Positions 2,384 to 61,863 of a DNA stretch of 64,000 bases are shown one piece after another (position 1 is the stretch's first letter; each line of letters opens with the position of its first letter). Below the pieces are notes generated by a model, which was not told where the DNA came from, did no database searches, and was given only the letters and a program-made list of their open reading frames with translations. The position numbers and the translations under genes were made by a program. Where the stretch lies: the IMG/VR virus record IMGVR_UViG_3300042360_000330; one strand, 5' to 3'. Source of the DNA: a virus (lineage: Duplodnaviria; Heunggongvirae; Uroviricota; Caudoviricetes).

Positions 2384-4732
2384 ATGAATTTATTACAAGA
2401 AATTAGAGGTTTTAATAATACTAAGGTAGATCCTACTATTATTAATGATGAACAATTAGATCAAATAGTAATACATGCCTTAGATGTTATAGAAAGAGGT
2501 ATAGAAGGAGATATAGTAGAATTTGGATGTTATGTAGGTGAATCAAGTAAATACTTAAGAAAAACTTTAGATGAAACTAATTCAAATAAAGATCTTTATG
2601 TATATGATTCTTTTGAAGGATTACCTCCGTTATCTAAACATGAAGAAGGAATGGGTTGGAGACCTGGTACCTTAAATACTACAGAAGATGTTCTAATTAA
2701 AAACTTTAGAGACAATGGATTAAAACCTCCATACACGTGTAAAGGATGGTTTAAAGATGTCCCAGATTATAGAATCCCAGATAAAATATGTTTTGCCTTT
2801 TTAGATGGTGATTTTTATGATTCTATTTATGATAGTTTAACAAAAATTTACGATAAAGTTCAAGAAGGAGGATATATTTTATTCCATGATTATGAAAGAA
2901 ATGATCTTCCTGGTGTAAGAGCAGCCATAGAAGATTTCTTAAGAGAAAGAGGAGAAGAATATAACGTTTACACAGCTTGTGAGCAAGTAGGAGTTTTAAA
3001 AAAGAATAAAGCACAAAAAATACATATTCCACAAGTAGATGATACTAATAAAGAATTAACAGTAGTTACAGGATTATGGGATATTAATCGTGCAGGTAGA
3101 AGTTTCGATCATTATATTGAAAACTTTAATAAATTTTTAGAAATGCCTGTAAATATGTTTATTTACGTTCCTAAAGATTTAGAACATTTAGTTTGGGAAA
3201 AACGTAGTAAATCAAACACCCATGTTAGAGTGTTTGAATTAGAAGATATTAAAAATAATTTTTACCAACCATTTTGGGACAAAACTCAAGAAATCAGAAC
3301 AAGCCCAGAGTGGCTTAACCAAGCAGGATGGTTAGCAGGTTCACCACAAGCATCAAATGAATGGTATAATCCAATTGTACAATCAAAAATGTTTATGCTC
3401 CACGATGCTAAAATATTAAATGTATTTGATACAGACTATTTCATATGGTTAGATGCTGGTATAACAAATACAGTATATGAAAAATACTTTACAGATAATA
3501 AATGTTTAGATAAGTTAATACCACATTTAAATACATTCTTATTTTTAAGCTATCCATATCAAGCAAACAGTGAAATCCATGGATTTGATTTTAAAGCTAT
3601 AAACAAATACGCTCGTGAAGAAGTAAAATATGTTTGTAGAGGTGGATTATTTGGTGGACATAAAGATTTCTTATCTCAAGCTAATGGAACTTATTATCAT
3701 TTACTTCAAGATACATTAACATCTGGGTATATGGGAACTGAAGAATCATTATTTAGTGTAATGGCTCATTTAGAACCACACATCTATAGAAGATATGCTT
3801 TAGATGAAAATGGTCTTATAGTTAAATTTATTCAAGATTTAATGGAAGATAATGTAAGATTAGAAAATAATGGTGGTCGAGCTCATGTATTACCAAAAGG
3901 AGTATACAATCCAAATACCTCTAAAACATCATTATACATGTTAACATTCAACTTCCCAGAACAAATAGAACACACTGTTGCTACTTGGGAAGCTAATTCA
4001 CCTGATTGGATGTCTAAACCTAGAAAAATATTATTAGATAATTCAACTGATGAAAGTGCTAGAATAAAAAATCAAGAATTAGCTGTAAAATATAATTTTG
4101 AATACATTCCTATGGAAGGAAATGTAGGTATAAATGGTGGTAGATTATTTGCTGCTAAACATTTCCAAGAATCAGATAGTGATTATTATTTCTTCTTTGA
4201 AGATGATATGGGATTACATTCAAACTCAGAACAAGGATTCTGTAGAAATGGATTTAAAAGTTACATTCCTGATCTATATAGAAAAGTACATGATATAATG
4301 GCTAAAGAGGATTTTGATTTCTTAAAATTATCATTTACTGAAGTTTATATGGATAACAACATTCAAGTATCATGGTATAATGTGCCTCAATCTGTTAGAA
4401 CATACATGTGGCCTGATTATGATCAATTACCAATCTCAGGATTAGACCCATATGCACCTAGAACTAAATTTGATAAAATAGATGTCCATAATGAATTATC
4501 TTACATCTCAGGAGAAATATATTATGCTAACTGGCCTATGATTGTAAGTAAAAAAGGTAATCAAAAAATGTTCTTAGATACTCAATGGGAACATCCATTT
4601 GAACAAACTTGGATGTCATACATGTTCCAAGAAACAGTTAAAGGAAATATAAAACCAGCAGTATTATTAGCGTCACCTGTACTTCATAATAGAATAGTAT
4701 ATTATAAACCTGAAGAAAGACGTGAGAATTAA
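2384..4732 (+). CDS. multidomain sugar-modifying enzyme: N-terminal TylF/MycF-like SAM-dependent O-methyltransferase plus C-terminal GT2-like glycosyltransferase
   Basis: Start shifted to internal ATG 2384 after upstream stop at 2381. Motifs VEFGCYVGESS, YDSFEGLPP, DGDFYDSI (macrocin O-MT family). C-terminal region has a GT-A like FEDDMG (DxD). Confidence 0.6.
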   Translation: MNLLQEIRGFNNTKVDPTIINDEQLDQIVIHALDVIERGIEGDIVEFGCYVGESSKYLRKTLDETNSNKDLYVYDSFEGLPPLSKHEEGMGWRPGTLNTTEDVLIKNFRDNGLKPPYTCKGWFKDVPDYRIPDKICFAFLDGDFYDSIYDSLTKIYDKVQEGGYILFHDYERNDLPGVRAAIEDFLRERGEEYNVYTACEQVGVLKKNKAQKIHIPQVDDTNKELTVVTGLWDINRAGRSFDHYIENFNKFLEMPVNMFIYVPKDLEHLVWEKRSKSNTHVRVFELEDIKNNFYQPFWDKTQEIRTSPEWLNQAGWLAGSPQASNEWYNPIVQSKMFMLHDAKILNVFDTDYFIWLDAGITNTVYEKYFTDNKCLDKLIPHLNTFLFLSYPYQANSEIHGFDFKAINKYAREEVKYVCRGGLFGGHKDFLSQANGTYYHLLQDTLTSGYMGTEESLFSVMAHLEPHIYRRYALDENGLIVKFIQDLMEDNVRLENNGGRAHVLPKGVYNPNTSKTSLYMLTFNFPEQIEHTVATWEANSPDWMSKPRKILLDNSTDESARIKNQELAVKYNFEYIPMEGNVGINGGRLFAAKHFQESDSDYYFFFEDDMGLHSNSEQGFCRNGFKSYIPDLYRKVHDIMAKEDFDFLKLSFTEVYMDNNIQVSWYNVPQSVRTYMWPDYDQLPISGLDPYAPRTKFDKIDVHNELSYISGEIYYANWPMIVSKKGNQKMFLDTQWEHPFEQTWMSYMFQETVKGNIKPAVLLASPVLHNRIVYYKPEERREN

Positions 4733-4767
4733 ATAAAGGGTTATTATATTTACAAAAAATTAAAGTT

Positions 4768-7353
4768 ATGTACCAAAGTATCTATTATAATAGAACTACT
4801 AAACAATATCATGTGCGCGACGATAAAAAGGGATGGGTTACCTTCCCTTATCGTGCTACATGTTATGTACCCGATGATGGAGGTGAATATAAAACATTAG
4901 ACGGACAACGTGTATCTCCTACACTACAGTATGGATATAAAGATCCAAATGTATTTGAAAGTGATGTTGACAAATATACTAGAGTATTAGTTGATGCTTA
5001 TTACACTTCTGATGATGTTCCTTCTTATCAAAATATAGTTTATTTAGATATTGAGTGTGAAATAGCAGGAGCACTTACTCAAGATAGTGTTCGTGATCCT
5101 CAAGGTAAAATAACTTCTATTGCTGTATATGATAATACTACTAAAGAGTACTACTGTTATGTATTAGATGAAGCTAAAAAATTACCATCATCAAAAACAG
5201 ATAACAAACATATTATATCTTGTACATCTGAAAAAGACTTATTATCCCAATTTCTTGATAAATGGGAAGAATTAGACCCAACAATTATATCTGGTTGGAA
5301 CAGCGAATTCTTCGATATACCGTACTTATATCATAGAATTGCCAAGGTATTGGGAAAAACAGAGGCCGTGCGTTTATCGCCGTTAAAACAAGTAGATAGC
5401 AACGAATTTTTAGGGGTTAAAACAACAACTATAGCTGGTTTAAATCATCTAGATTATATGTTACTATTTAAAAAATATGTAACAACCCAAGAACCATCTT
5501 ATGCTTTAGGAAATATAGGTACTAAATATGTTAACTTAGGAAAAATAGAATACTTAGGTTCACTTGATAAATTATTTCAAGAAGATGTTCAAAAATTCAT
5601 TGATTATAACATTCGGGATGTTGAAATTATAATTGAATTAGAGAAAAAACTTAAATTCATTGATTTAACAGTTACAGTATGTCATTTATGTCATACCCCT
5701 TATAATCAGGTGTATATGTCAACTATGCTGAATGAAGGCGCTATTTTAACTTATTTAAAACGTAAAGGGATAGTTTCACCAAATAAACCTACAACTTATA
5801 ATCCTTCATTAAGAGATATTAAAGAAGAATATGCTGGTGGTTATTTAAAAGATCCTGTACCTGGTTTGTATGAATGGGTTATTGACTTAGATTTCACATC
5901 ATTATATCCTTCTATTATTAGATCCCTAAACATGGGTATTGAAACCTTAGTAGGTCGTATTGTAAATAGAGACAAATATGACAACCAGTGGTCACTAAAA
6001 GAATTAAAACTATTAAACCCAGAAATGGATCTTACTATTGAAAAAGTAAACGAAAATAAAAGCATTACTCGATCAACTGTAAAAGTAAGTAAAATAATAA
6101 AGTTTATCGAACAAGGAAACTACATAATATCTGCACCTGGTGTCATTTTTAGAAAAGATAAAGAAAGTGTAGTATGTGAAATATTAACTGACTGGTTTAA
6201 TAAGAGAAGTGAGTATAAAGCATTAATGAAAGATGCATTCAAAGTTAAAAAAGATCCAATATTAGGGGATTTCTATAATAGACGCCAACATGCCTATAAA
6301 ATTAAATTAAATGATGTTTATGGATGTTATGCTATTAATGGTTGGAGATACACGGATGGTCATAAATTTATATCAAAAGCTATTACACTTACAGGACAAC
6401 GCTTAATTCAAGAATCTATTAAACATGTTAATAAATGGATGAACAACCAAATTAATACAGAAGGTATAGATTACATTGTAACATCCGATACAGATTCACT
6501 TTTTATTCAAGTTAAAGATTTACTTAGACAAAGATATCCTGATCTAGATTTAAACAATAGAGAAGAAACAGTTAAGTATGTTTTAGAAATTGCTACTGAA
6601 GTACAACAAATTGCAAATGATAATTTACATGGTTTAGTAGTTGAATTATTTAATCTACATGATAGAGAACATTATTTTGATCTAAAACAAGAAGTTGTAC
6701 TTGAACGAGGATACTTTGCAGGTAAAAGACGTTATGCCCAATTCATTGTAAATAAAGAAGGTGTTCCTGTAGAAGAACTAGATATTAAGGGATTAGATTT
6801 AATGAAGTCAAACTTCCCACCGTATTTTAGAAACTTTAGTAAGCAACTTCTTCAAGATATAATGTTTGGAAAACCTAAACCAGACATAGATAAACAGATA
6901 TTAGCATTTAGAGAAAGTATAGACACTGTAGATTGGAGATTATTATTAAAACCTACAGGTTTAAAAAACATAGGAGGGTATATTGCCTCTCCTCCCAAAG
7001 CAGGTGAAATATTCTCTAAATTAGGATTAAAATGCCCAATTAATACCAAATCAGCTATATATTATAATGATATATTACGTTTTAAAAAACTAGATAAACA
7101 ATACAATACATTCCAGATAGGGGATAAAATGTTTATAGCTTATTTAAAAGATAATCCTTATAATATAGAAGTTATAGGGTTTAATGGGTATGATGATCCT
7201 CCATTTATTACAGAATTTATAGAAAAATACCTAGACAAAACACAGTTATTCGATTCTGTGTTAAGGAATAAATTAGAAAGTTTATATGATGATTTAAAAT
7301 GGGGTAAACCTATCTTTAATAGCAATATAAATAAATTCTTTAAATTTGGATAA
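4768..7353 (+). CDS. DNA polymerase, family B
   Basis: 861 aa; exo I YLDIECE, exo II FFDIPYL, pol motif A DLDFTSLYPSII, motif C VTSDTDSLF. Confidence 0.9.
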   Translation: MYQSIYYNRTTKQYHVRDDKKGWVTFPYRATCYVPDDGGEYKTLDGQRVSPTLQYGYKDPNVFESDVDKYTRVLVDAYYTSDDVPSYQNIVYLDIECEIAGALTQDSVRDPQGKITSIAVYDNTTKEYYCYVLDEAKKLPSSKTDNKHIISCTSEKDLLSQFLDKWEELDPTIISGWNSEFFDIPYLYHRIAKVLGKTEAVRLSPLKQVDSNEFLGVKTTTIAGLNHLDYMLLFKKYVTTQEPSYALGNIGTKYVNLGKIEYLGSLDKLFQEDVQKFIDYNIRDVEIIIELEKKLKFIDLTVTVCHLCHTPYNQVYMSTMLNEGAILTYLKRKGIVSPNKPTTYNPSLRDIKEEYAGGYLKDPVPGLYEWVIDLDFTSLYPSIIRSLNMGIETLVGRIVNRDKYDNQWSLKELKLLNPEMDLTIEKVNENKSITRSTVKVSKIIKFIEQGNYIISAPGVIFRKDKESVVCEILTDWFNKRSEYKALMKDAFKVKKDPILGDFYNRRQHAYKIKLNDVYGCYAINGWRYTDGHKFISKAITLTGQRLIQESIKHVNKWMNNQINTEGIDYIVTSDTDSLFIQVKDLLRQRYPDLDLNNREETVKYVLEIATEVQQIANDNLHGLVVELFNLHDREHYFDLKQEVVLERGYFAGKRRYAQFIVNKEGVPVEELDIKGLDLMKSNFPPYFRNFSKQLLQDIMFGKPKPDIDKQILAFRESIDTVDWRLLLKPTGLKNIGGYIASPPKAGEIFSKLGLKCPINTKSAIYYNDILRFKKLDKQYNTFQIGDKMFIAYLKDNPYNIEVIGFNGYDDPPFITEFIEKYLDKTQLFDSVLRNKLESLYDDLKWGKPIFNSNINKFFKFG

Positions 7354-50930: not shown

Positions 50931-50990
50931 AAAATTACAAGAAAGCTTGCGGTACACAACATCAATACAAACATACGTATATACAAGAAT

Positions 50991-53005: not shown

Positions 53006-53039
53006 ATCCAAAGCACCAAATACATAATCCAGCTAAAAT

Positions 53040-53110
53040 AAAACGTACGACGGAAGAAACGAAACGTACGACGGAATAGAATAATAACGTACGGGCGAAA
53101 GGGCGATTAC
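53040..53110. repeat. three direct iterons AACGTACG(A/G)(C/G)GG spaced about 22 nt apart
   Basis: aaaacgtacgacggaag / gaaacgtacgacggaat / aacgtacgggcgaa; further copies at 53840 (direct) and 54352 (inverted). Confidence 0.6.
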
Positions 53111-53330: not shown

Positions 53331-53458
53331 TGTACTTAACATGTGGAACGAATGGAGATAATGTGTGATGGAGTTTTGTGACAAGGGAAAAGGTCCCGCC
53401 ATGCCACGCCCCGTTTCTCCACTTTCGAAACGTATATACAAAACATAACATAACTACT

Positions 53459-53656: not shown

Positions 53657-53963
53657 GAATTTTTTTGTACATTCATATAAATAAAAAATTTAAAATTATG
53701 ATTGTACCTTTTTGGATTCAAGGCTTAGCATTTGGTGTTTATTATGTTCCGGACGACGACGGAGTAGATTACGACGACGAGACACATATGGTCCAATTGG
53801 CGTTAGGTTTTTTTGGTATATCGTTTATGTGGTGGAACGACTAAAACGTACGACGACGAAAGTTTTTTGTCTTTTTTTGCGATAATATTTGGTTGCGTGG
53901 TTTTTTGTTATTAATTTTATGCCAGAGTTAAAAACATAAACATTAACATTAAAAATCAAGGTT

Positions 53964-54296
53964 ATGACGCGTACAGAAGTATTAGCAAAAGTAAAAGAGT
54001 TAGGTATCAAAACAGAAAGACCAGCTCATCAGATGAAAACAGAAGCATTAGTTGCTTTAATTCACAAAACAGTTGTGATTGAAGATCACAAAGCACGTGG
54101 ACGTAAAATCAATCCAACGAGCGCTAGACAACAAAGATTAGCTACCCGAGCTATGTTGTTAGAAAATGGTCCAATTCAAAAAGGACGTAAACCGAACTTA
54201 ACCAGTGCCAGACAACAAAGATTGGCTGCATGGGAAGCTAGAAAGGCTGCCGGTGAGGTAATAAAACGAGGCCGTCCAGCAATGGTGGTTGCGTAA
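53964..54296 (+). CDS. small basic protein with internal tandem repeat (GRK-N-TSARQQRLA x2), candidate iteron/DNA-binding protein
   Basis: 110 aa, highly basic; KARGRKINPTSARQQRLATRA / KGRKPNLTSARQQRLAAWEA; flanked by iterons. Confidence 0.5.
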   Translation: MTRTEVLAKVKELGIKTERPAHQMKTEALVALIHKTVVIEDHKARGRKINPTSARQQRLATRAMLLENGPIQKGRKPNLTSARQQRLAAWEARKAAGEVIKRGRPAMVVA

Positions 54297-54318
54297 TTTA
54301 ATTGTTAAACTAGGAACT

Positions 54319-54348
54319 GACCCGACAGAAATGTCGGGTCTTTTTTTT
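54319..54348 (+). terminator. rho-independent terminator GACCCGACA-gaaa-TGTCGGGTC + T8
   Basis: 9-bp stem and T-run. Confidence 0.7.
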
Positions 54349-54539
54349 CCTCCGTCGTACGTTTTATTATTTGGGGACAACTATTTCTAATATCCAAGTT
54401 GGTTGTTAATTTTTTTATTCGTACCTTTATGGGGGGGTCCGTTTTTTTTTTATAAAAACGTTACAACATTTTTTGTTTATCATTTGGATATTGGTTTTTT
54501 TGTTTGTATATTTACGACGTTAATTAAAACAATAGAGTT

Positions 54540-54791
54540 ATGAGAGTACAAATTAAATCCATCTTCGAGCAAATTGCAGAGCAAGTATTTAAAATGACTG
54601 ATGCAACTAAAGCTAAAACGTTCATTACTGAATTCGTTAATGAAAAGAATATTAACGACGACGACAAAAGAACGATCCTAAACAACATAGAGAACCTTAA
54701 ATCGATTGCCCAGATCCAGAAATACATCTGTAACTCACTTCTTCAGTATGAGGGGCTAGGTGTTGGTGCTAGAAAGGATCCAAATGAGTGA
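54540..54791 (+). CDS. hypothetical protein
   Basis: 83 aa ORF. Confidence 0.45.
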   Translation: MRVQIKSIFEQIAEQVFKMTDATKAKTFITEFVNEKNINDDDKRTILNNIENLKSIAQIQKYICNSLLQYEGLGVGARKDPNE

Positions 54792-54957
54792 GCTGGATCA
54801 TCTGGCCCAGTGGGAGCAGTTCCTCTGGCTTCAGGGGCTCGATCCGGGGCCTGAAATTGGGAACACCATTTCGTTAGTATGTATGTCGGAAGACATTAAA
54901 CATTATAATTATGAAGACTATCCAAGTAACACTTCAAGAGCGATGGGCTGCTTCTAG
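54784..54957 (+). CDS. small hypothetical protein encoded in GC-rich island (57 aa from internal ATG of ORF 54760..54957)
   Basis: MSELDHLAQWEQFLWLQGLDPGPEIGN...; local GC about 50 percent versus about 30 percent genome. Confidence 0.3.
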   Translation: MSELDHLAQWEQFLWLQGLDPGPEIGNTISLVCMSEDIKHYNYEDYPSNTSRAMGCF

Positions 54958-55103
54958 GCACCAGATCCACAAGACAAAGAAAACATATACCCGTAAGGAT
55001 AAACACAAAAACAAGAGTCGTAAAGACTCTTCATTTGTCTTTGGTTACCAGAATTATGTGTCGTAATTTTATAGCATAGTTAAAAACATTAAAAATAAAA
55101 GTT

Positions 55104-55349
55104 ATGGCTTATAGAGAAACATTTAGAATGAATCAAAGAGATTTTGATGAAGAAAATGAAGAAACAATTAATGACATTAGAAGTTATTTAGTTTACAATT
55201 ACAATCATGTAAGTTCAGACCAACTATCAGATGGTTTTATTCTGGAGTTTATGTCCAGAGATTACTTAGTAAGGTTGCCGTTTGAGAGAAAGATGGATTG
55301 CCTTTATGATCACATTTTGGCTCAAGGTTTATGTGATGTAGAAGAATAG
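55104..55349 (+). CDS. hypothetical protein
   Basis: 81 aa ORF with promoter box upstream. Confidence 0.45.
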   Translation: MAYRETFRMNQRDFDEENEETINDIRSYLVYNYNHVSSDQLSDGFILEFMSRDYLVRLPFERKMDCLYDHILAQGLCDVEE

Positions 55350-55353
55350 ATTA

Positions 55354-55373
55354 AGCGCTTAGGCGCTTTTTTT
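55354..55373 (+). terminator. terminator AGCGC-ttag-GCGCT + T7
   Basis: GC hairpin followed by ttttttt. Confidence 0.6.
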
Positions 55374-55437
55374 GTCTTTCACTAGGATACCTAAAAAATT
55401 TTTCGTACCTTTATACCAAATTTAAATTAAAAACAAA

Positions 55438-55998
55438 ATGAAAACATTAGTAATACACCCTAACGATCGATCAACTGATTTTCTTAAGCCGATCTATAAC
55501 GAGCTAGACGATGTTACTCTGGTGACTGGCAACTGGACACGTGGGGAAATAATAGAGGGCATCCAGGCACACGATCAAGTAATGATGATGGGACATGGGA
55601 GCCCAGGTGGATTGTTTGCTATGGGGCAGTTTTGGCCTCAAGACGTCCTTAGTGCCTATATTATAGGGGCTGACATGGTTGAGGCGTTGAGCCAGAAGGA
55701 CAACAACATTTTTATCTGGTGTAATGCCGATCAATTTGTTACTAGACACATGCTGAAGGGGTTTTACACTGGGATGTTTATCTCTGAGACGGGCGAGGCT
55801 GCTTATTGTGGATTGCCTGGTACACCTCAAGACATGGTGGATGAATCGAACCACGGGTTTGTTAAAATACTTGGCGATGCACTTCAGGGCACCAGAGACA
55901 CTAGTGTTCTATTTGAGCAGACTAGCAACACATACAGCCTAATAGCCGACATTAATCCAGTAGCTAAATACAATCATAATAGACTTTATTTAAGATAG
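55438..55998 (+). CDS. hypothetical protein, compositionally foreign (GC about 45 percent)
   Basis: 186 aa; codon usage G/C-ending unlike neighbours; motifs VIHPNDRS, MMMGHGSPGGLFAMG; no family recognised. Confidence 0.5.
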   Translation: MKTLVIHPNDRSTDFLKPIYNELDDVTLVTGNWTRGEIIEGIQAHDQVMMMGHGSPGGLFAMGQFWPQDVLSAYIIGADMVEALSQKDNNIFIWCNADQFVTRHMLKGFYTGMFISETGEAAYCGLPGTPQDMVDESNHGFVKILGDALQGTRDTSVLFEQTSNTYSLIADINPVAKYNHNRLYLR

Positions 55999-56063
55999 AT
56001 TTGGTTGCCTAAAATATTATTCGTACTTTTATATCAAAGTTTAACAATTAAAATATTCTTATT

Positions 56064-56363
56064 ATGAGTGAAAAAATTAACAGCGACTGTTTATTCCGCC
56101 TTGAGGCGAAAGGTGAAGACATTAGTGCTTCAGTTGAAGGTAAAGCTAGAGATATAGCAGAATTACTTGCTAACGCAGCTATAAATTCAGAAGAAATAAA
56201 CATGGTTTTAAAATTTGCTATGTTAATGTTGGCTCAACATGAAATGAACCAAGACGAAGACGAAGACGAAGACCGAATCAGCGAAGAAAGATTCCAAGCT
56301 GGTAAAGAAGCTGCTGTTGACTTAGCTCAGGCATTATTCCCTCTTAAAATGGAGGAAGCATAA
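56064..56363 (+). CDS. acidic hypothetical protein
   Basis: 99 aa; NQDEDEDEDRISEE. Confidence 0.45.
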   Translation: MSEKINSDCLFRLEAKGEDISASVEGKARDIAELLANAAINSEEINMVLKFAMLMLAQHEMNQDEDEDEDRISEERFQAGKEAAVDLAQALFPLKMEEA

Positions 56364-56399
56364 GATTTCTCATTATTTATTGTTTTTAATTAGTGAATT

Positions 56400-56425
56400 G
56401 ACTCATCAGAAATGGTGAGTCTTTT
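56400..56425 (+). terminator. terminator GACTCATC-agaaa-GGTGAGTC + TTTT
   Basis: 8-bp stem including G-U pairs, T-run. Confidence 0.5.
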
Positions 56426-56437
56426 CTATTTATCATC

Positions 56438-56656
56438 ATGAAAAAGTTTATATTATATTTGATCACATGGGTAGCAGGCAATCTGTCTATTCCATTCTGG
56501 ATGGTAGGGCACGTCCACCTGACAACTAATGTGTATGAGGACATACATGAGATAATTGCCTCATTCGGGATGAACATTATAGTGGCCCTTGGGTTCTGGC
56601 TAGAATGGAAAAACTACGATGCGGCTACTAAGCCAAATAACGATAAAGACAATTAA
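56438..56656 (+). CDS. small membrane protein
   Basis: 72 aa, two TM helices. Confidence 0.45.
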   Translation: MKKFILYLITWVAGNLSIPFWMVGHVHLTTNVYEDIHEIIASFGMNIIVALGFWLEWKNYDAATKPNNDKDN

Positions 56657-56712
56657 ATAATACTTGGTTATACGGTTTATAGTTTGTAATTTTATAGCAT
56701 AATTTAAAACAA

Positions 56713-56889
56713 CAAATAAAATGAGCACATTAAAATTTACAGACGGAGAAACATTTGATTTATCAGGTGAATTAAGAGCCGAAGAGCGTTATGATGGATG
56801 GTACGTGTTAGGTGAAAACCGAATGATACCTGTTAACGACGAGTTTGATGCTTTAAACACAATAGATAAACTTAACGCCCTTAAATAAG
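56713..56889 (+). CDS. small hypothetical protein (58 aa)
   Basis: ATG 14 nt after promoter box 56684..56711; below ORF-track cutoff. Confidence 0.35.
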
Positions 56890-57075
56890 ATGAATAAGTT
56901 ACTACTTAGATATAAAAATGAAAACAACAAGCAAGTAGACGTTGTAATGGATCCCAGAGAGCTATCCCATATGGAGTTTATTAAGGGGAACAGAACGTTA
57001 TATAAGGTATATGATGCTGAAGATGAGTTTAATGTTGAATTAGAACGTCTAACTAAATTAAGTAACAGTAATTAA
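56890..57075 (+). CDS. small hypothetical protein
   Basis: 61 aa ORF. Confidence 0.35.
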   Translation: MNKLLLRYKNENNKQVDVVMDPRELSHMEFIKGNRTLYKVYDAEDEFNVELERLTKLSNSN

Positions 57076-57145
57076 AAGTAGACGTGTATACGCTACTTAC
57101 CGTTCGTAATTTTATAGCATAGTTTAACAATTAAAAACATATAAA

Positions 57146-57331: not shown

Positions 57332-57499
57332 AAGCAATGAATACGATAACACAGACGATAGAGCAAGATGGATTCAGCTGGTTCGAATATAATACAGGAT
57401 CGATCACATTAATCGAATTTTCATTGAGTGAGCTAGTAAAGCGTATAGTAGCCATTAACCCGACGCTAAATTAAGCATGTACGGTAGATACTAAACAAA

Positions 57500-57800
57500 C
57501 AACAACAACTAACATGAGGCGGCCAAAAGGTCGCCTTCCTTAATCTAAATGCATGTGTGCGCGCGCGTGACAAAAAAAGCGGGCAGGGCTCTGGCTTCAG
57601 GCGGGTCTGGCGTGTGTGACAAAAAAGAACACTCTCCTTCAATCTATCGATCCGCTAGCGCTGCGCGCGCGGAGCGACAGCGAAGTGGGCCCACGGTAAT
57701 TGCGGTCCATCGACGATGCGACAAAAACGCGCCCGAAGGCCCCGGCTTTACAACAAGACAACAAAATTCACCCCGCGCCCCCCGTATATACAAATATATT
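57500..57800. other. GC-rich non-coding island (about 60 percent GC) with alternating-GC tracts and G(T/C)GACAAAAA direct repeats
   Basis: gtgtgcgcgcgcgtgac, cgctagcgctgcgcgcgcgg, gggcccacgg; repeats at 57569, 57617, 57718; predicted ORF here is Arg/Ala-rich artefact. Confidence 0.5.
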
Positions 57801-58082
57801 GCAAAATCCATTATAACCCATTCGATATAAAATCCAAGACCCCGAAATCTCTCTCTTTAACGATCTTTTATCCCTTTCAAAGCGTATATACGAGAGGTTG
57901 GAGACAGGAAAAAACATTCGTATATTTAGACTTAAATTAAAAAGTTATGGTAATATACATGGAAAAAACCATTGAATTATTAGGTAAACTAGACCCCAAG
58001 GGAACCCAGGCCTTAATCGACTCAGGTGAAGTTAAATACTTAGAAGAAAAAACTGCTTATTTAGTAATTAAAGATAAAGAAG

Positions 58083-59087
58083 ATGAGTAAAATTGAAGAA
58101 TTAAAACAGCACAATCCTTATTACGGAAAATCAGCCATCGATATAATGCATTGGCTTTTTGATAAACCCAAATACGTCGAGCTAGCCGTTTCATTGTTTA
58201 AAAACGCAGAAAACGCGCGTACTTACCATAATGATGTTATTGAGATATTAGCAGATTGGGAAATACCTCAGGAAAAAATAGATGCTCTATCTATCTACGA
58301 ATTACACTTTATATACGTTTTCTTAGATTCAGTAGGTAGAGAAAATATTACTAATCTACTTAAATTTGCCGAATATAACGAGCGAAAATTAATTGTTCGA
58401 AATGATATTTCCACGTATAAGAATTTTGATGAATTGGAGAATCAAATAAATCTAGCAGAGATAAAAATAATGGGTAAAGAATTACAATCCCAAACCCAAA
58501 TCCTACATGATACGGATGAATGGTTGGTTTTAAAACCATTATCATTCGAAGCATCTTTAAAATATGGTGCCTCTACTAAGTGGTGTACCGCCATGAAGAA
58601 TGACCCCGAGTATTTTATTCGTTATTCTAAACGTGGAATTGTGATTTATTGTATAAATCGCTCCACGGGTGAAAAAATAGCCGCATTTAAGAATCTTAAT
58701 ACTGATTATGAGTATGAAACATCATTCTGGGATGCTAAAGATATTCGTGTAGATTCTATGGATACTAATCTTCCTGAACGTATTTTAATTCTTATACGTA
58801 GTGAGTTTACTAATACTAAATTAACTAATTGGGAATTATTTTCAGATGAATATAAAGCTCAGTATCTTTCAAATACAACTATGACAACAAATACATGGCA
58901 TGATGAACCAAACGTAGCACCAAATCAGGGTGGTTTAGGATTAGCCATTCGTAACGCTATTACGTATGATGAAGACATTAATGTTGAAGAATTAGTAGAA
59001 AGGCAAATGGAAGAACGAGTAGTAGCTTGTAATACTGCTCCACCCCCATTTATGGGTGACATGGTTGAACAAGCTTGGAGAGACTAA
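58083..59087 (+). CDS. hypothetical protein
   Basis: 334 aa ORF; no recognisable motif. Confidence 0.5.
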   Translation: MSKIEELKQHNPYYGKSAIDIMHWLFDKPKYVELAVSLFKNAENARTYHNDVIEILADWEIPQEKIDALSIYELHFIYVFLDSVGRENITNLLKFAEYNERKLIVRNDISTYKNFDELENQINLAEIKIMGKELQSQTQILHDTDEWLVLKPLSFEASLKYGASTKWCTAMKNDPEYFIRYSKRGIVIYCINRSTGEKIAAFKNLNTDYEYETSFWDAKDIRVDSMDTNLPERILILIRSEFTNTKLTNWELFSDEYKAQYLSNTTMTTNTWHDEPNVAPNQGGLGLAIRNAITYDEDINVEELVERQMEERVVACNTAPPPFMGDMVEQAWRD

Positions 59088-59091
59088 TAGT

Positions 59092-59565
59092 ATGGGAGAA
59101 TTTAAACACATAACATTAGACGAAGCTAAATCGGATTATTATCCTAAACCCGAAGGAGTAAATTGTTTTTACTCTGATGCTTATACTTTAACACCTGATC
59201 CTAATGATCCAACTAATGATTATGTACATTATTGGGTAAAGAATAATAAATTTAATGCTTCCTTATCATTTAACGAAGGATACATTTATATTTTGGAGAA
59301 TAAAGGTCAACCTGGTGTGTTGAAAATTGGATATACGGATAGGACGCCACAGGAGAGAGTCCGAGAGATTAACGGGGCAACAGGTGTTATAACACCTTGG
59401 TACATAGTTAACGCATTCGCATGTAGAGCGCCTTTACAAATTGAATCTTTGATACATAAGAAACTTAAACCATTTCATGTTAATAAAGAAGGATTTGCTG
59501 TAACTATACCCTATGCTGAGGAAACAATTGCTGGTGTTATTTCCGATAATAATGCAAGTATTTAG
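59092..59565 (+). CDS. T5orf172/MUG113-type GIY-YIG-like domain protein
   Basis: Start at ATG 59092 (MGEFKH...); GYIYILENKGQPGVLKIGYTDRTPQERVREINGATGVITPWYIV matches the T5orf172 domain pattern. Confidence 0.6.
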   Translation: MGEFKHITLDEAKSDYYPKPEGVNCFYSDAYTLTPDPNDPTNDYVHYWVKNNKFNASLSFNEGYIYILENKGQPGVLKIGYTDRTPQERVREINGATGVITPWYIVNAFACRAPLQIESLIHKKLKPFHVNKEGFAVTIPYAEETIAGVISDNNASI

Positions 59566-60842: not shown

Positions 60843-61124
60843 ATGACAACATTTGTAATTATTTTAATTAGTATCGTCCTTATTTTAGGATATATTTCTT
60901 ACAATTTATTTAAAAAAGTTGAACAATTAGAAAGGATAGTAGATTCTCAAGAACAATACATATCTAAATTTTCTAATACAGTAGATTTTACTAATAAACG
61001 ATTAGGAGAAATTGATGAAAAAGGAACATTTCAATCCGATGACGAAATAGGATGGTTTTTTGAGAGTGTAAAGACATTACAGAGTGAATTAGATGATTTT
61101 AATTTGAATGGAGTTAGAAGATAA
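60843..61124 (+). CDS. small membrane-anchored protein
   Basis: 93 aa; N-terminal TM helix. Confidence 0.45.
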   Translation: MTTFVIILISIVLILGYISYNLFKKVEQLERIVDSQEQYISKFSNTVDFTNKRLGEIDEKGTFQSDDEIGWFFESVKTLQSELDDFNLNGVRR

Positions 61125-61863
61125 TGTAATAACGGTCGAGCTTACCAAGTCTGGTAAGCCCCGTAAACGTAAACCCAAAACATCTCACACATACTTTACT
61201 GAAGACACTCAGAATGCTATTGTAGAATATGTAGCATCTCAGGATCAAAAATTTAGAGATAAAGTTTATCGTGAACGTATTGAGTATGGATTTTTTAAAT
61301 TGACTCAAAACATCATTCACACTTTTAAATTTTACTATACTGATGGTGAATCTGTTGAAGATGTACAACAAGAAGTAATTGCTTTTTTACTTGAAAAACT
61401 TAAATTATACAAACCTGCTAAAGGTAAGGCATATTCCTATTTTGGAACTATAGCTAAACGTTATTTAATTTTAAAGAATAAGAAAAACTATCAAAAACTT
61501 CAAGATAAAGGAGATTTATTAGAGATTGAAGAAGATAAAACTATACGAGAAGAAATAATAAATGACCATTATGGACAAGACTATAGTGTAAGTGAATTTA
61601 TGTCTTTATATACTCGTTATGTAGATAAAAATCTTCATAAATTGTTTCCTAAAGAAATAGATGCTAAAACAGCAGATGCCGTAGTTGAATTATTCCGTAA
61701 ATGTGAATCATTGGATATATTTAACAAAAAAGCATTATACATCTATATTCGTGAAATGATAGACGTAGATACTCCTCAAATTACTAAAATTATTAAAAAA
61801 TTAAAAGTTATATACATTGATTTATATAATAGATATTATGAAGATAATTACATCAATGTGTAA
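61108..61863 (+). CDS. hypothetical protein (weak resemblance to sigma-factor region 2; possible transcription regulator)
   Basis: 251 aa; ...EVIAFLLEKLKLYKPAKGKAYSYFGTIAKRYLI... Confidence 0.4.
   Translation: MELEDNVITVELTKSGKPRKRKPKTSHTYFTEDTQNAIVEYVASQDQKFRDKVYRERIEYGFFKLTQNIIHTFKFYYTDGESVEDVQQEVIAFLLEKLKLYKPAKGKAYSYFGTIAKRYLILKNKKNYQKLQDKGDLLEIEEDKTIREEIINDHYGQDYSVSEFMSLYTRYVDKNLHKLFPKEIDAKTADAVVELFRKCESLDIFNKKALYIYIREMIDVDTPQITKIIKKLKVIYIDLYNRYYEDNYINV

Follow-up and report, generated by a model that had tools for sequence, protein, structure and literature searches.

A conserved intergenic element of uncultured T4-like phages pairs an 11-nt phased repeat array with a promoter-like box at fixed distance

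What is a guanine- and cytosine-rich (GC-rich) island that encodes no protein doing between two genes of an AT-rich phage? The question is raised by IMG/VR virus record IMGVR_UViG_3300042360_000330, of which we analysed one stretch of 64,000 nucleotides (nt; hereafter the window). The window is T4-like phage DNA with a mean GC content of 31.4% over its 64 kb and all genes on the + strand, and the island sits in a 472-bp gap between an open reading frame (ORF) that stops at 57474 and the next, which starts at 57947. A first-pass annotation, made from the letters of the window, had described a GC-rich, Z-DNA-prone region there and proposed a packaging (pac/cos) site, a second origin, a structured RNA or a recombination hotspot. 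The GC enrichment is real: positions 57539-57782 have 57.8% GC, and the 200-nt segment at 57551 (60.5%) is the maximum of the whole 64 kb, with only the tRNA cluster (0.53) coming near. We found that the island is part of a ~400-bp non-coding element common to a phage family without cultured representative, kept across a close clade and distant contigs, and with a layout that suggests a function in cis. Its organising principle, which the first-pass annotation missed, is a repeat array phased at 11 nt that keeps a constant distance to a promoter-like box.

Homologous islands were found first in the contigs L001, L019 and L021 by flank-protein and DNA-pattern searches, and contigs encoding homologs of the 47-aa protein downstream raised the set to 18 distinct island sequences. 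Positions 57501-57800 are 90-100% identical between L019 and the window, compared with 63% at four-fold degenerate sites of the flanking genes, indicating that the island is under purifying selection. Its 5' third (57540-57630) is variable, with indels and changes in TCTGG copy number.

The wider family was reached through the most conserved 18-mer, AATTGCGGTCCATCGACG (57698-57715), which matched 49 viral contigs of up to 179 kb that are far more diverse than the close clade; family members are uncultured, AT-rich, T4-like phage contigs. An earlier metagenome scan with the 19-mer GGGCCCACGGTAATTGCGG had returned only two contigs, one of them new, because that 19-mer lies partly in a variable unit. 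Invariance of the 18-mer in the loci found through it (L052-L098) is an ascertainment artefact, and to avoid this circularity the family was re-sampled through the gene for a sigma-like protein encoded downstream. Relatives of this protein occurred in 289 viral contigs, from which 80 loci were kept, 41 of them with more than 3.6 kb of upstream DNA. The core of the element was found in 36 of these 41, 2-3 kb upstream of the sigma-like gene. Within the sigma-anchored set the AATT of the core varies (CAATAGCGG, TAGCCGCGG, TAACCGCGG), which makes unit 0 look like one further repeat, and GCGGTCC(A/C)TCGACGG and TGCTCCCACG stay conserved.

Read in an 11-nt register, the GC-rich core resolves into head-to-tail yGATAGCGnnn units, such as CGATAGCGATC CGATAGCGGTT TGATAGCGAAT in L078, and the information content per unit shows that positions 1-8 carry information and positions 9-11 are free. 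Self-identity at lag 11 was 0.415 among 67 distinct members (shuffles, 0.253 ± 0.047), with a harmonic at lag 22; lag 11 was the maximum in 78% of these members, and the value in the window was 0.44. Indels within the array are close to one unit in size (+11 in L065 and L090, −10 in L066/L072/L093). GATAGCG occurs 64 times within the element compared with 29 times in ~455 kb of flanking DNA, where composition alone predicts 24.5, such that evenly phased tandem direct repeats, as expected of an iteron origin, are found at this one locus only. In the window, three + strand units at 57653-57685 (CGCTAGCGCTG / CGCGCGCGGAG / CGACAGCGAAG) are variants of yGATAGCGnnn, and the conserved core at 57686-57718 (TGGGCCCACGG / TAATTGCGGTC / CATCGACGATG) continues the register on the same strand, with the family consensus TGCTCCCAyGC / yAATTGCGGTC / CATCGACGGnG (TGCTCCCAyG..GCGGTCCaTCGACGG). 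The geometry is thus one of 8-nt sites with 3-nt free spacers, one site per 11-bp helical turn, followed by a core of ~33 bp.

The distance from the core to the promoter-like box, termed box 1 (CGTATATAC, 57783-57791, + strand), is tightly constrained. GCGGTCC lies 79-83 nt from box 1 in all 71 of 71 distinct members and 82 nt from it in the window, where the intervening conserved spacer of fixed length (57730-57782, + strand) includes ACAACAAGACAACAAAA at 57750-57766. Repeats on one face of the helix at fixed distance from a promoter-like box are the arrangement expected of an operator or activator array. Box 2 (CGTATATACG, 57883-57892, + strand) is palindromic, follows box 1 at a variable distance of 87-195 nt in the family, and lies 10-30 nt upstream of the first gene in distant members. 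The first-pass annotation had noticed that the end of the island echoes a sequence near 53431, and this echo is real because the shared motif CGTATATAC was found five times in the window against 0.36 expected, at 50976, 53431, 57783 and, on both strands, 57883. GTATATAC immediately precedes ORFs of the window at 50976 and 53431 and occurs in the syntenic places of L075 and L084 and upstream of ORFs in ~47 loci; in distant loci, GTATATAC(G) is present again at a third conserved position farther downstream. Judged by motif position, GTATATAC would be a phage-specific promoter box, distinct from the early-promoter-like TTGGWT-N17-TAnnTT class of the same phage. Our literature searches found no paper describing the GTATATAC box as a phage promoter.

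The phased array also accounts for part of what had made the island look prone to form Z-DNA. Alternating purine/pyrimidine runs are present, as ATGCATGTGTGCGCGCGCGTG at 57549-57569 (21 nt) and TGCGCGCGCG at 57662-57671, and the former is the longest such run in the window and the sole GC-rich one, with a length that none of 2000 shuffled versions of the core attained. This run belongs to the variable 5' portion of the element: L001/L021 retain 11 nt of it, and L045 has lost it. The ‘Z-DNA’ sequence CGCGCGCG at 57664 is, in the 11-nt register, a variant repeat unit, and most relatives have CGATAGCG there. Both reported palindromes likewise exist, each as a single copy in the window: CGCTAGCG (57653-57660) is another variant unit, and GGGCCC (57687-57692) falls in the first unit of the conserved core. 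The alternating tracts, being shortened, deleted or replaced in relatives, are not the conserved feature, and the Z-DNA reading was dropped.

Three G(T/C)GACAAAAA direct repeats had been reported as well and were recovered as GTGACAAAAA at 57567 and 57616 and GCGACAAAAA at 57718. The pattern is not enriched across the window (5 found, 11 expected) and is notable for three copies inside 160 nt and for its conservation in relatives. The first box (57567-57576, + strand), a GC clamp with an A-tract, stands upstream of the array; the second (57616-57625, + strand) is kept in 15/15 close relatives; and the third (57718-57727, + strand) directly follows the core, with GCGCACAAAAAA as its family equivalent. 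Distant members have an equivalent box, GCGCG(T)GTACAAAAA, twice upstream of the array, and such boxes occur on both sides of it. Between the first two boxes, the variable spacer at 57577-57615 has short TCTGG repeats and indels, with 2-3 (A)TGTCTGG copies in L001/L021 and a 29-nt insertion in L028-L035 that carries an extra GTAACAAAAAAG. The 13-mer CTCTGGCTTCAGG does recur at 54823-54835 as had been stated, but the link is a chance one, with a BLAST E of 0.2 and no conservation in L001/L021.

Comparison with relatives also showed that the island is non-coding. In L001/L021, the predicted ORF at 57549-57830 (93 aa), which had already been suspected to be an artefact of GC content, is frameshifted and lacks its start through a deletion. 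None of the frames stays open throughout the 15 close relatives, nor do the variable sites follow a codon periodicity (16/26/23 by codon position in the best frame). A protein-coding gene or pseudogene was rejected given this lack of a shared open frame and the frame-breaking indels. Two minus-strand candidates were rejected from reading of the alignment: a 55-aa ORF is truncated in L001, and a 23-codon ORF that begins with the ATG of CGTCGATGG lacks this start in L045, and most of its changes are non-synonymous.

In AT-rich genomes, an intergenic island of high GC content often turns out to be an RNA gene. We nevertheless consider it very unlikely here that the island is a structured non-coding RNA or a riboswitch-like leader whose folding would account for its GC content. 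In its favour, the close clade offers long-range pairing between GCGYGTG (57561-57569) and CRCRCC (57771-57780) with C-G, U-G and U-A pair types, and a minus-strand promoter-like TTGGAT-N16-TATAAT with a variable spacer. The folding prediction suggested by the first-pass annotation did not bear the idea out. Rfam gave no hit in the window at the gathering score and only noise at E ≤ 10 for the island and two distant copies, and minimum free energies did not differ significantly from shuffles on either strand (z-scores −0.3 and +1.5). Among 15 close sequences, RNAalifold returned no compensatory pair for the + strand, and the three that it returned for the − strand are weak. On more diverse copies there were none on either strand: the core gave −2.1 kcal/mol with 10 pairs on the + strand (51 sequences) and −3.0 kcal/mol on the − strand (38 sequences), and the leader downstream of box 1, whose sequence is conserved across clades, yet forms no pairs, gave 0 kcal/mol (37 sequences). 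The conservation pattern is one of 11-nt direct repeats with free 3-nt spacers rather than of stems and loops.

Individual structures fared no better. A long-range closing helix (57553-57569 / 57770-57790) was promising in the 15 close sequences but is absent from the wide alignment, its 5' arm being deleted in L045 and truncated in L001/L021, and a hairpin UGGGCCCA...UGCGGUCCA is broken by variants in L027, L031 and L037. The minus-strand promoter candidate (57810-57837; on the + strand ATTATA at 57810-57815 and ATCCAA at 57832-57837) is weak and doubtful, with invariant hexamers and a variable spacer in the close clade and its spacing lost in the distant clade. A conserved RNA fold is rejected on both strands. 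The one local structure consistently predicted in 18 close relatives (mean pair probability 0.7-1.0) is the hairpin GAGGCGGCC-AAAA-GGTCGCCTTC at 57516-57538, 40 nt beyond the stop codon of the preceding gene. Present as a single copy in the window, it is terminator-like without a good T-run, and its G-U pairs favour the + strand. The L019 contig ends 25 nt before this hairpin.

The genes around the element are arranged in a characteristic way. Upstream content is variable, and downstream the order is conserved, with a small ‘LLTKEAF’ protein, a T5orf172 protein, three small proteins, the sigma-like protein and two further conserved proteins, such that the element stands at the border of a variable early region and a conserved module. 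The sigma-like protein is present in every locus long enough, and its gene always lies 1.7-3.4 kb downstream of the element. In the window it is a 251-aa product (61108-61863) with a match to Pfam Sigma70_r2 at E = 1.7e-5, just above the Pfam cut-off, and it is probably the phage's own sigma factor. The gene for the LLTKEAF protein comes directly after the element in 39 of 48 distant loci, and the window clade lacks it; that the protein might be a ribbon-helix-helix repressor found no support in Pfam, NCBIfam and PDB sequence searches. The T5orf172/MUG113 protein (59056-59565; Pfam E = 9e-15), of a GIY-YIG subfamily (PMC10448857), has its gene 0.3-1.6 kb past the element in 38 of 48 loci, and its GIY...YIG, Arg and Glu motifs look intact. 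The sporadic distribution of its gene resembles that of a homing-endonuclease gene. Searches of cultured phage databases matched neither the island nor a distant copy of it nor a distant T5orf172 protein.

Between box 1 and box 2, the conserved leader (57792-57882, + strand) is AT-rich and G-poor, with 6 G and 23 C in 91 nt and 68% AT. It carries a boxA-like CTCTTTAAC at 57853-57861 that resembles the boxA antitermination motif, and a Rho-loading or antitermination arrangement of the leader is a matter of speculation. At the 3' end of the island, an early-type sigma-70-like promoter, TTGGAG-N17-TATATT (57898-57926, + strand), precedes the region of the ribosome-binding site (RBS) and the ATG at 57947; it is conserved in the close clade and matches the phage's own TTGGWT-N16-18-TAnnTT class. 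Many close relatives have an unrelated ORF of 64-240 aa inserted between this promoter/RBS and the homolog of the 47-aa gene (L027, 2307-2504; L042, 1987-2499; L029, 775-969; L030, 73-795; L032, 145-378; L037, 2323-2529). The site after the promoter is thus a gene-insertion hotspot, and the different ORFs found there suggest that a conserved promoter at the 3' end of the island drives variable genes. Across relatives, variable genes are inserted on either side of the element and polymorphisms are reassorted inside it.

Taken together, the phasing, the free spacers, the unit-sized indels, the restriction to one locus and the lack of an RNA fold or coding frame point to a DNA element bound by protein on one face, and the tight spacing between core and box 1 suggests that the complex acts on initiation at box 1. 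We read the island as neither an RNA gene nor a coding remnant nor a Z-DNA device. We propose, with a probability of roughly one half, that it is a cis-acting DNA platform for a sequence-specific protein that would control the adjacent promoter; protein binding, promoter activity and the direction of regulation are predictions from sequence. The protein would bind the array cooperatively along one helix face and, from 79-83 bp away, control initiation at the GTATATAC box 1, which would head the conserved gene module containing the sigma-like factor. The transcript would then cross the conserved, G-poor and unstructured leader to box 2 and the first gene and express the module, and may also prime replication as at T4 origins.

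Several observations weigh against this proposal. No binding protein is tied to the repeats, the LLTKEAF protein having no Pfam, NCBIfam or PDB match, and at least six loci with 5-11 kb of DNA on the downstream side (L053, L068, L076, L087, L093, L095) retain the element but lack the T5orf172 gene. The repeat units of the window clade are diverged (CGCTAGCG, CGCGCGCG, CGACAGCG), so that its array is perhaps bound by a different protein or partly vestigial. The promoter activity ascribed to GTATATAC derives from motif position only, and the conservation of the ~100-nt leader is unexplained by a simple operator model. An unstructured RNA working through its sequence may also be compatible with the folding tests reported above.

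A replication origin is a tentative but serious alternative, in which the repeats would be initiator iterons and a primer transcript from box 1 would form an R-loop in the AT-rich leader. This combines features of T4 oriE (12-nt repeats and a promoter) with those of oriF/oriG (a promoter and an unwinding element), and overlaps with a protein platform rather than being exclusive of it. The first-pass suggestion of a second origin thus stays plausible. Within the DNA examined, phased direct repeats are confined to this locus, A-tract boxes flank the array, a promoter-like box reads into a ~68% AT, G-poor region, and the element lies at the border of the variable early region and the conserved module. 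However, no inflection in skew marks the site, the AT content of the leader does not exceed the genome average and its length ranges from 87 to 195 nt, and no recognisable initiator, helicase-loader or primase gene is adjacent. The + strand transcript would also be pyrimidine-rich, which is unfavourable for a stable R-loop. Even at T4 oriE, the role of the repeats is unproven (PMC3016281). Alternatively, the element could be a target or regulatory site of the T5orf172 (GIY-YIG-type) nuclease, be it for nicking or cleavage, as a homing site or as an operator, which we regard as unlikely. The proximity of the gene in 38/48 loci would fit, and there are precedents in Odn, a T5orf172 nuclease that requires iterons to cut the PLE origin (PMC8263062), and in a phage satellite that tunes phage gene expression with a domesticated endonuclease (PMC8096241). 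Against it, the gene is missing from the loci named above that keep the element, the protein is 35-100% identical among members and thus far more diverged than the element, and only ~60 residues lie outside its nuclease domain. The domesticated endonuclease of the satellite is reportedly CapR, of the ICP1/PLE system, acting as a repressor. The protein also has none of the Zn-finger DNA-binding modules typical of T5orf172 homing enzymes (PMC10448857). A still more elaborate arrangement, very much a long shot, would have a repeat-bound protein, possibly with a GIY-YIG/T5orf172 nickase at the core, create a fixed entry site (nick or R-loop) by the GTATATAC promoters, coupling replication (clamp loading/priming) to activation of the sigma-like module. 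Such an entry site, if it exists, would amount to the nick ‘enhancer’ of T4 late transcription written into the sequence.

We consider it extremely unlikely that the island is a Z-DNA element, a recombination hotspot, a pac/cos site or a decaying foreign GC-rich fragment. The 21-nt alternating tract, the variable genes on both sides with polymorphisms reassorted within, and contig ends that are commoner upstream of the core (~10 vs 2 within 1 kb, our own tally) could be read in favour of one or another of these. The alternating tracts are, however, not conserved in homologous elements (L001/L021, L045; CGATAGCG for CGCGCGCG), and the contig ends (L052-L098) scatter 37-2000 nt upstream instead of falling at one position, which suggests assembly breaks in a strain-variable region rather than a defined terminus. 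The neighbouring genes that were screened with PHROGs/Pfam do not include a terminase. The island has neither a second copy nor an inverted-repeat or duplication signature, and a miniature inverted-repeat transposable element (MITE) or other mobile element was rejected on the same grounds (single copy in the 64-kb window by nhmmer and short-word BLAST) and from its constant syntenic position. A scan of 185,579 prokaryote genomes with one exact 19-mer, which would miss diverged homologs, gave five hits with unrelated flanks where ~4 were expected by chance. A host-derived fragment was rejected given only such chance matches, and ARAGORN found nothing in the island. Decay is ruled out by the strong purifying selection.

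Other parts of the window place the element in its genomic context. The family-B DNA polymerase encoded there has its top cultured match, at 37% identity, in Microcystis phage Mel-JY01, and further gene products include GroEL, a carbamoyltransferase, DNA and RNA ligases, thymidylate synthase and tRNA nucleotidyltransferase. ARAGORN identified 24 tRNA genes. Between those for tRNA-Asp and tRNA-Met, ~380 nt of GC-rich non-coding DNA (32387-32763) contain a T-arm-like GGTTCGAGTCC and gave no ARAGORN or Rfam call; this may be a degenerate tRNA or another small RNA. Small ORFs fill the region at 53-57 kb (53889-57136), almost all preceded by TTGGWT-N17-TAnnTT and then TTATAGCATAGTT. This early-promoter-like class numbers 14 in the window compared with 4.5 expected, and the promoter repeats of the region resemble the promoter/stem-loop cassettes of T4-type hyperplastic regions.

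Further features were recorded near the element or in its relatives. Repeats of AAACGTACGACGG occur at 53037-53084 as two direct copies, 21 nt apart, and 1.3 kb off at 54341-54368 as an inverted copy with 89% complementarity over 28 nt; the copies enclose non-coding DNA and small genes, and their CGACGG is similar to the TCGACGG of the element core. Positions 53964-54296 encode a basic 110-aa protein in which GRK-N-TSARQQRLA occurs twice as an internal repeat, together with an AT-hook-like KRGRP, and its homologs are found upstream of the element in 15 distant loci. In L001, 628 nt (4447-5074) are without any cytosine on the coding strand (A 261, G 117, T 250) and hold an ORF of ~130 codons. 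This stretch is absent from the window, and positions 2900-3700 of L001 are also very C-poor.

The repeat phasing, the core and the fixed distance to the promoter-like box are better conserved than the surrounding proteins, which makes the element a handle on how these phages may switch from the variable early region to the module with the sigma-like factor; it may also show where their replication starts. It marks a syntenic boundary and a hotspot where small genes swap in and out. More generally, a GC island that looks like Z-DNA can be a diverged repeat array, which became visible only after distant relatives were aligned.

The sequence family and its particular layout appear to be undescribed; phased repeat arrays beside promoters or origins are familiar as a kind. 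The nearest likeness in a T4-like phage is T4 oriE, an intergenic set of evenly spaced 12-nt repeats by a promoter, of unproven role and with similar repeats at syntenic positions in relatives, whereas oriF and oriG consist of a promoter and a downstream unwinding element (PMC3016281). The element shares with oriE the evenly spaced short direct repeats by a promoter, here a putative one, and the syntenic conservation. It differs in its unit of 11 rather than 12 nt, in having no sequence similarity, in an array that runs into a ~33-bp core 79-83 nt from a phage-specific GTATATAC box, and in that no repEA/repEB-like genes were recognised near it.

Outside phages, Pho boxes and other OmpR-PhoB sites consist of tandem 7-8 bp sites with 3-4 bp spacers, phased at 11 bp and placed upstream of promoters. 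The element resembles them in its head-to-tail 8-mers with free 3-nt spacers, one site per turn, in 3-6 or more copies at a fixed upstream position. The sites differ in sequence, no gene for a response regulator or a winged-helix protein was identified here, and the array lies farther off (about −80 to −170) and at one locus rather than across a regulon. In parC/ParR of plasmid R1, 11-bp direct repeats flank a promoter and are bound cooperatively by a small protein encoded in the operon. The 11-bp direct repeats at one locus and, in most family members, the small protein gene directly downstream are alike, whereas the repeats of the element lie on one side of the putative promoter only and the LLTKEAF protein has no detectable ribbon-helix-helix signature. 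The R1 system also serves partition, which a lytic T4-like phage is not known to need.

The PLE origin likewise couples a non-coding repeat array with a T5orf172-domain gene, and its iterons, recognised by RepA and Odn, are three ~30-bp semi-palindromes in a satellite (PMC8263062). Odn of PLE has a RepA_N-like DNA-binding domain, whereas the T5orf172 protein of the window has none and is dispensable for retention of the element. Ordinary promoter-early/stem-loop (PeSL) junctions in T4-type hyperplastic regions are tens of bp long. The island is akin to such cassettes in being bounded by the stem-loop at 57516-57538 and the early-type promoter at 57898-57926, in the neighbouring run of small ORFs with the same promoter repeat, and in the different genes that follow its promoter in relatives. 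It is set apart by its ~360 bp of GC-rich array, core and GTATATAC boxes, which are conserved far beyond the close clade.

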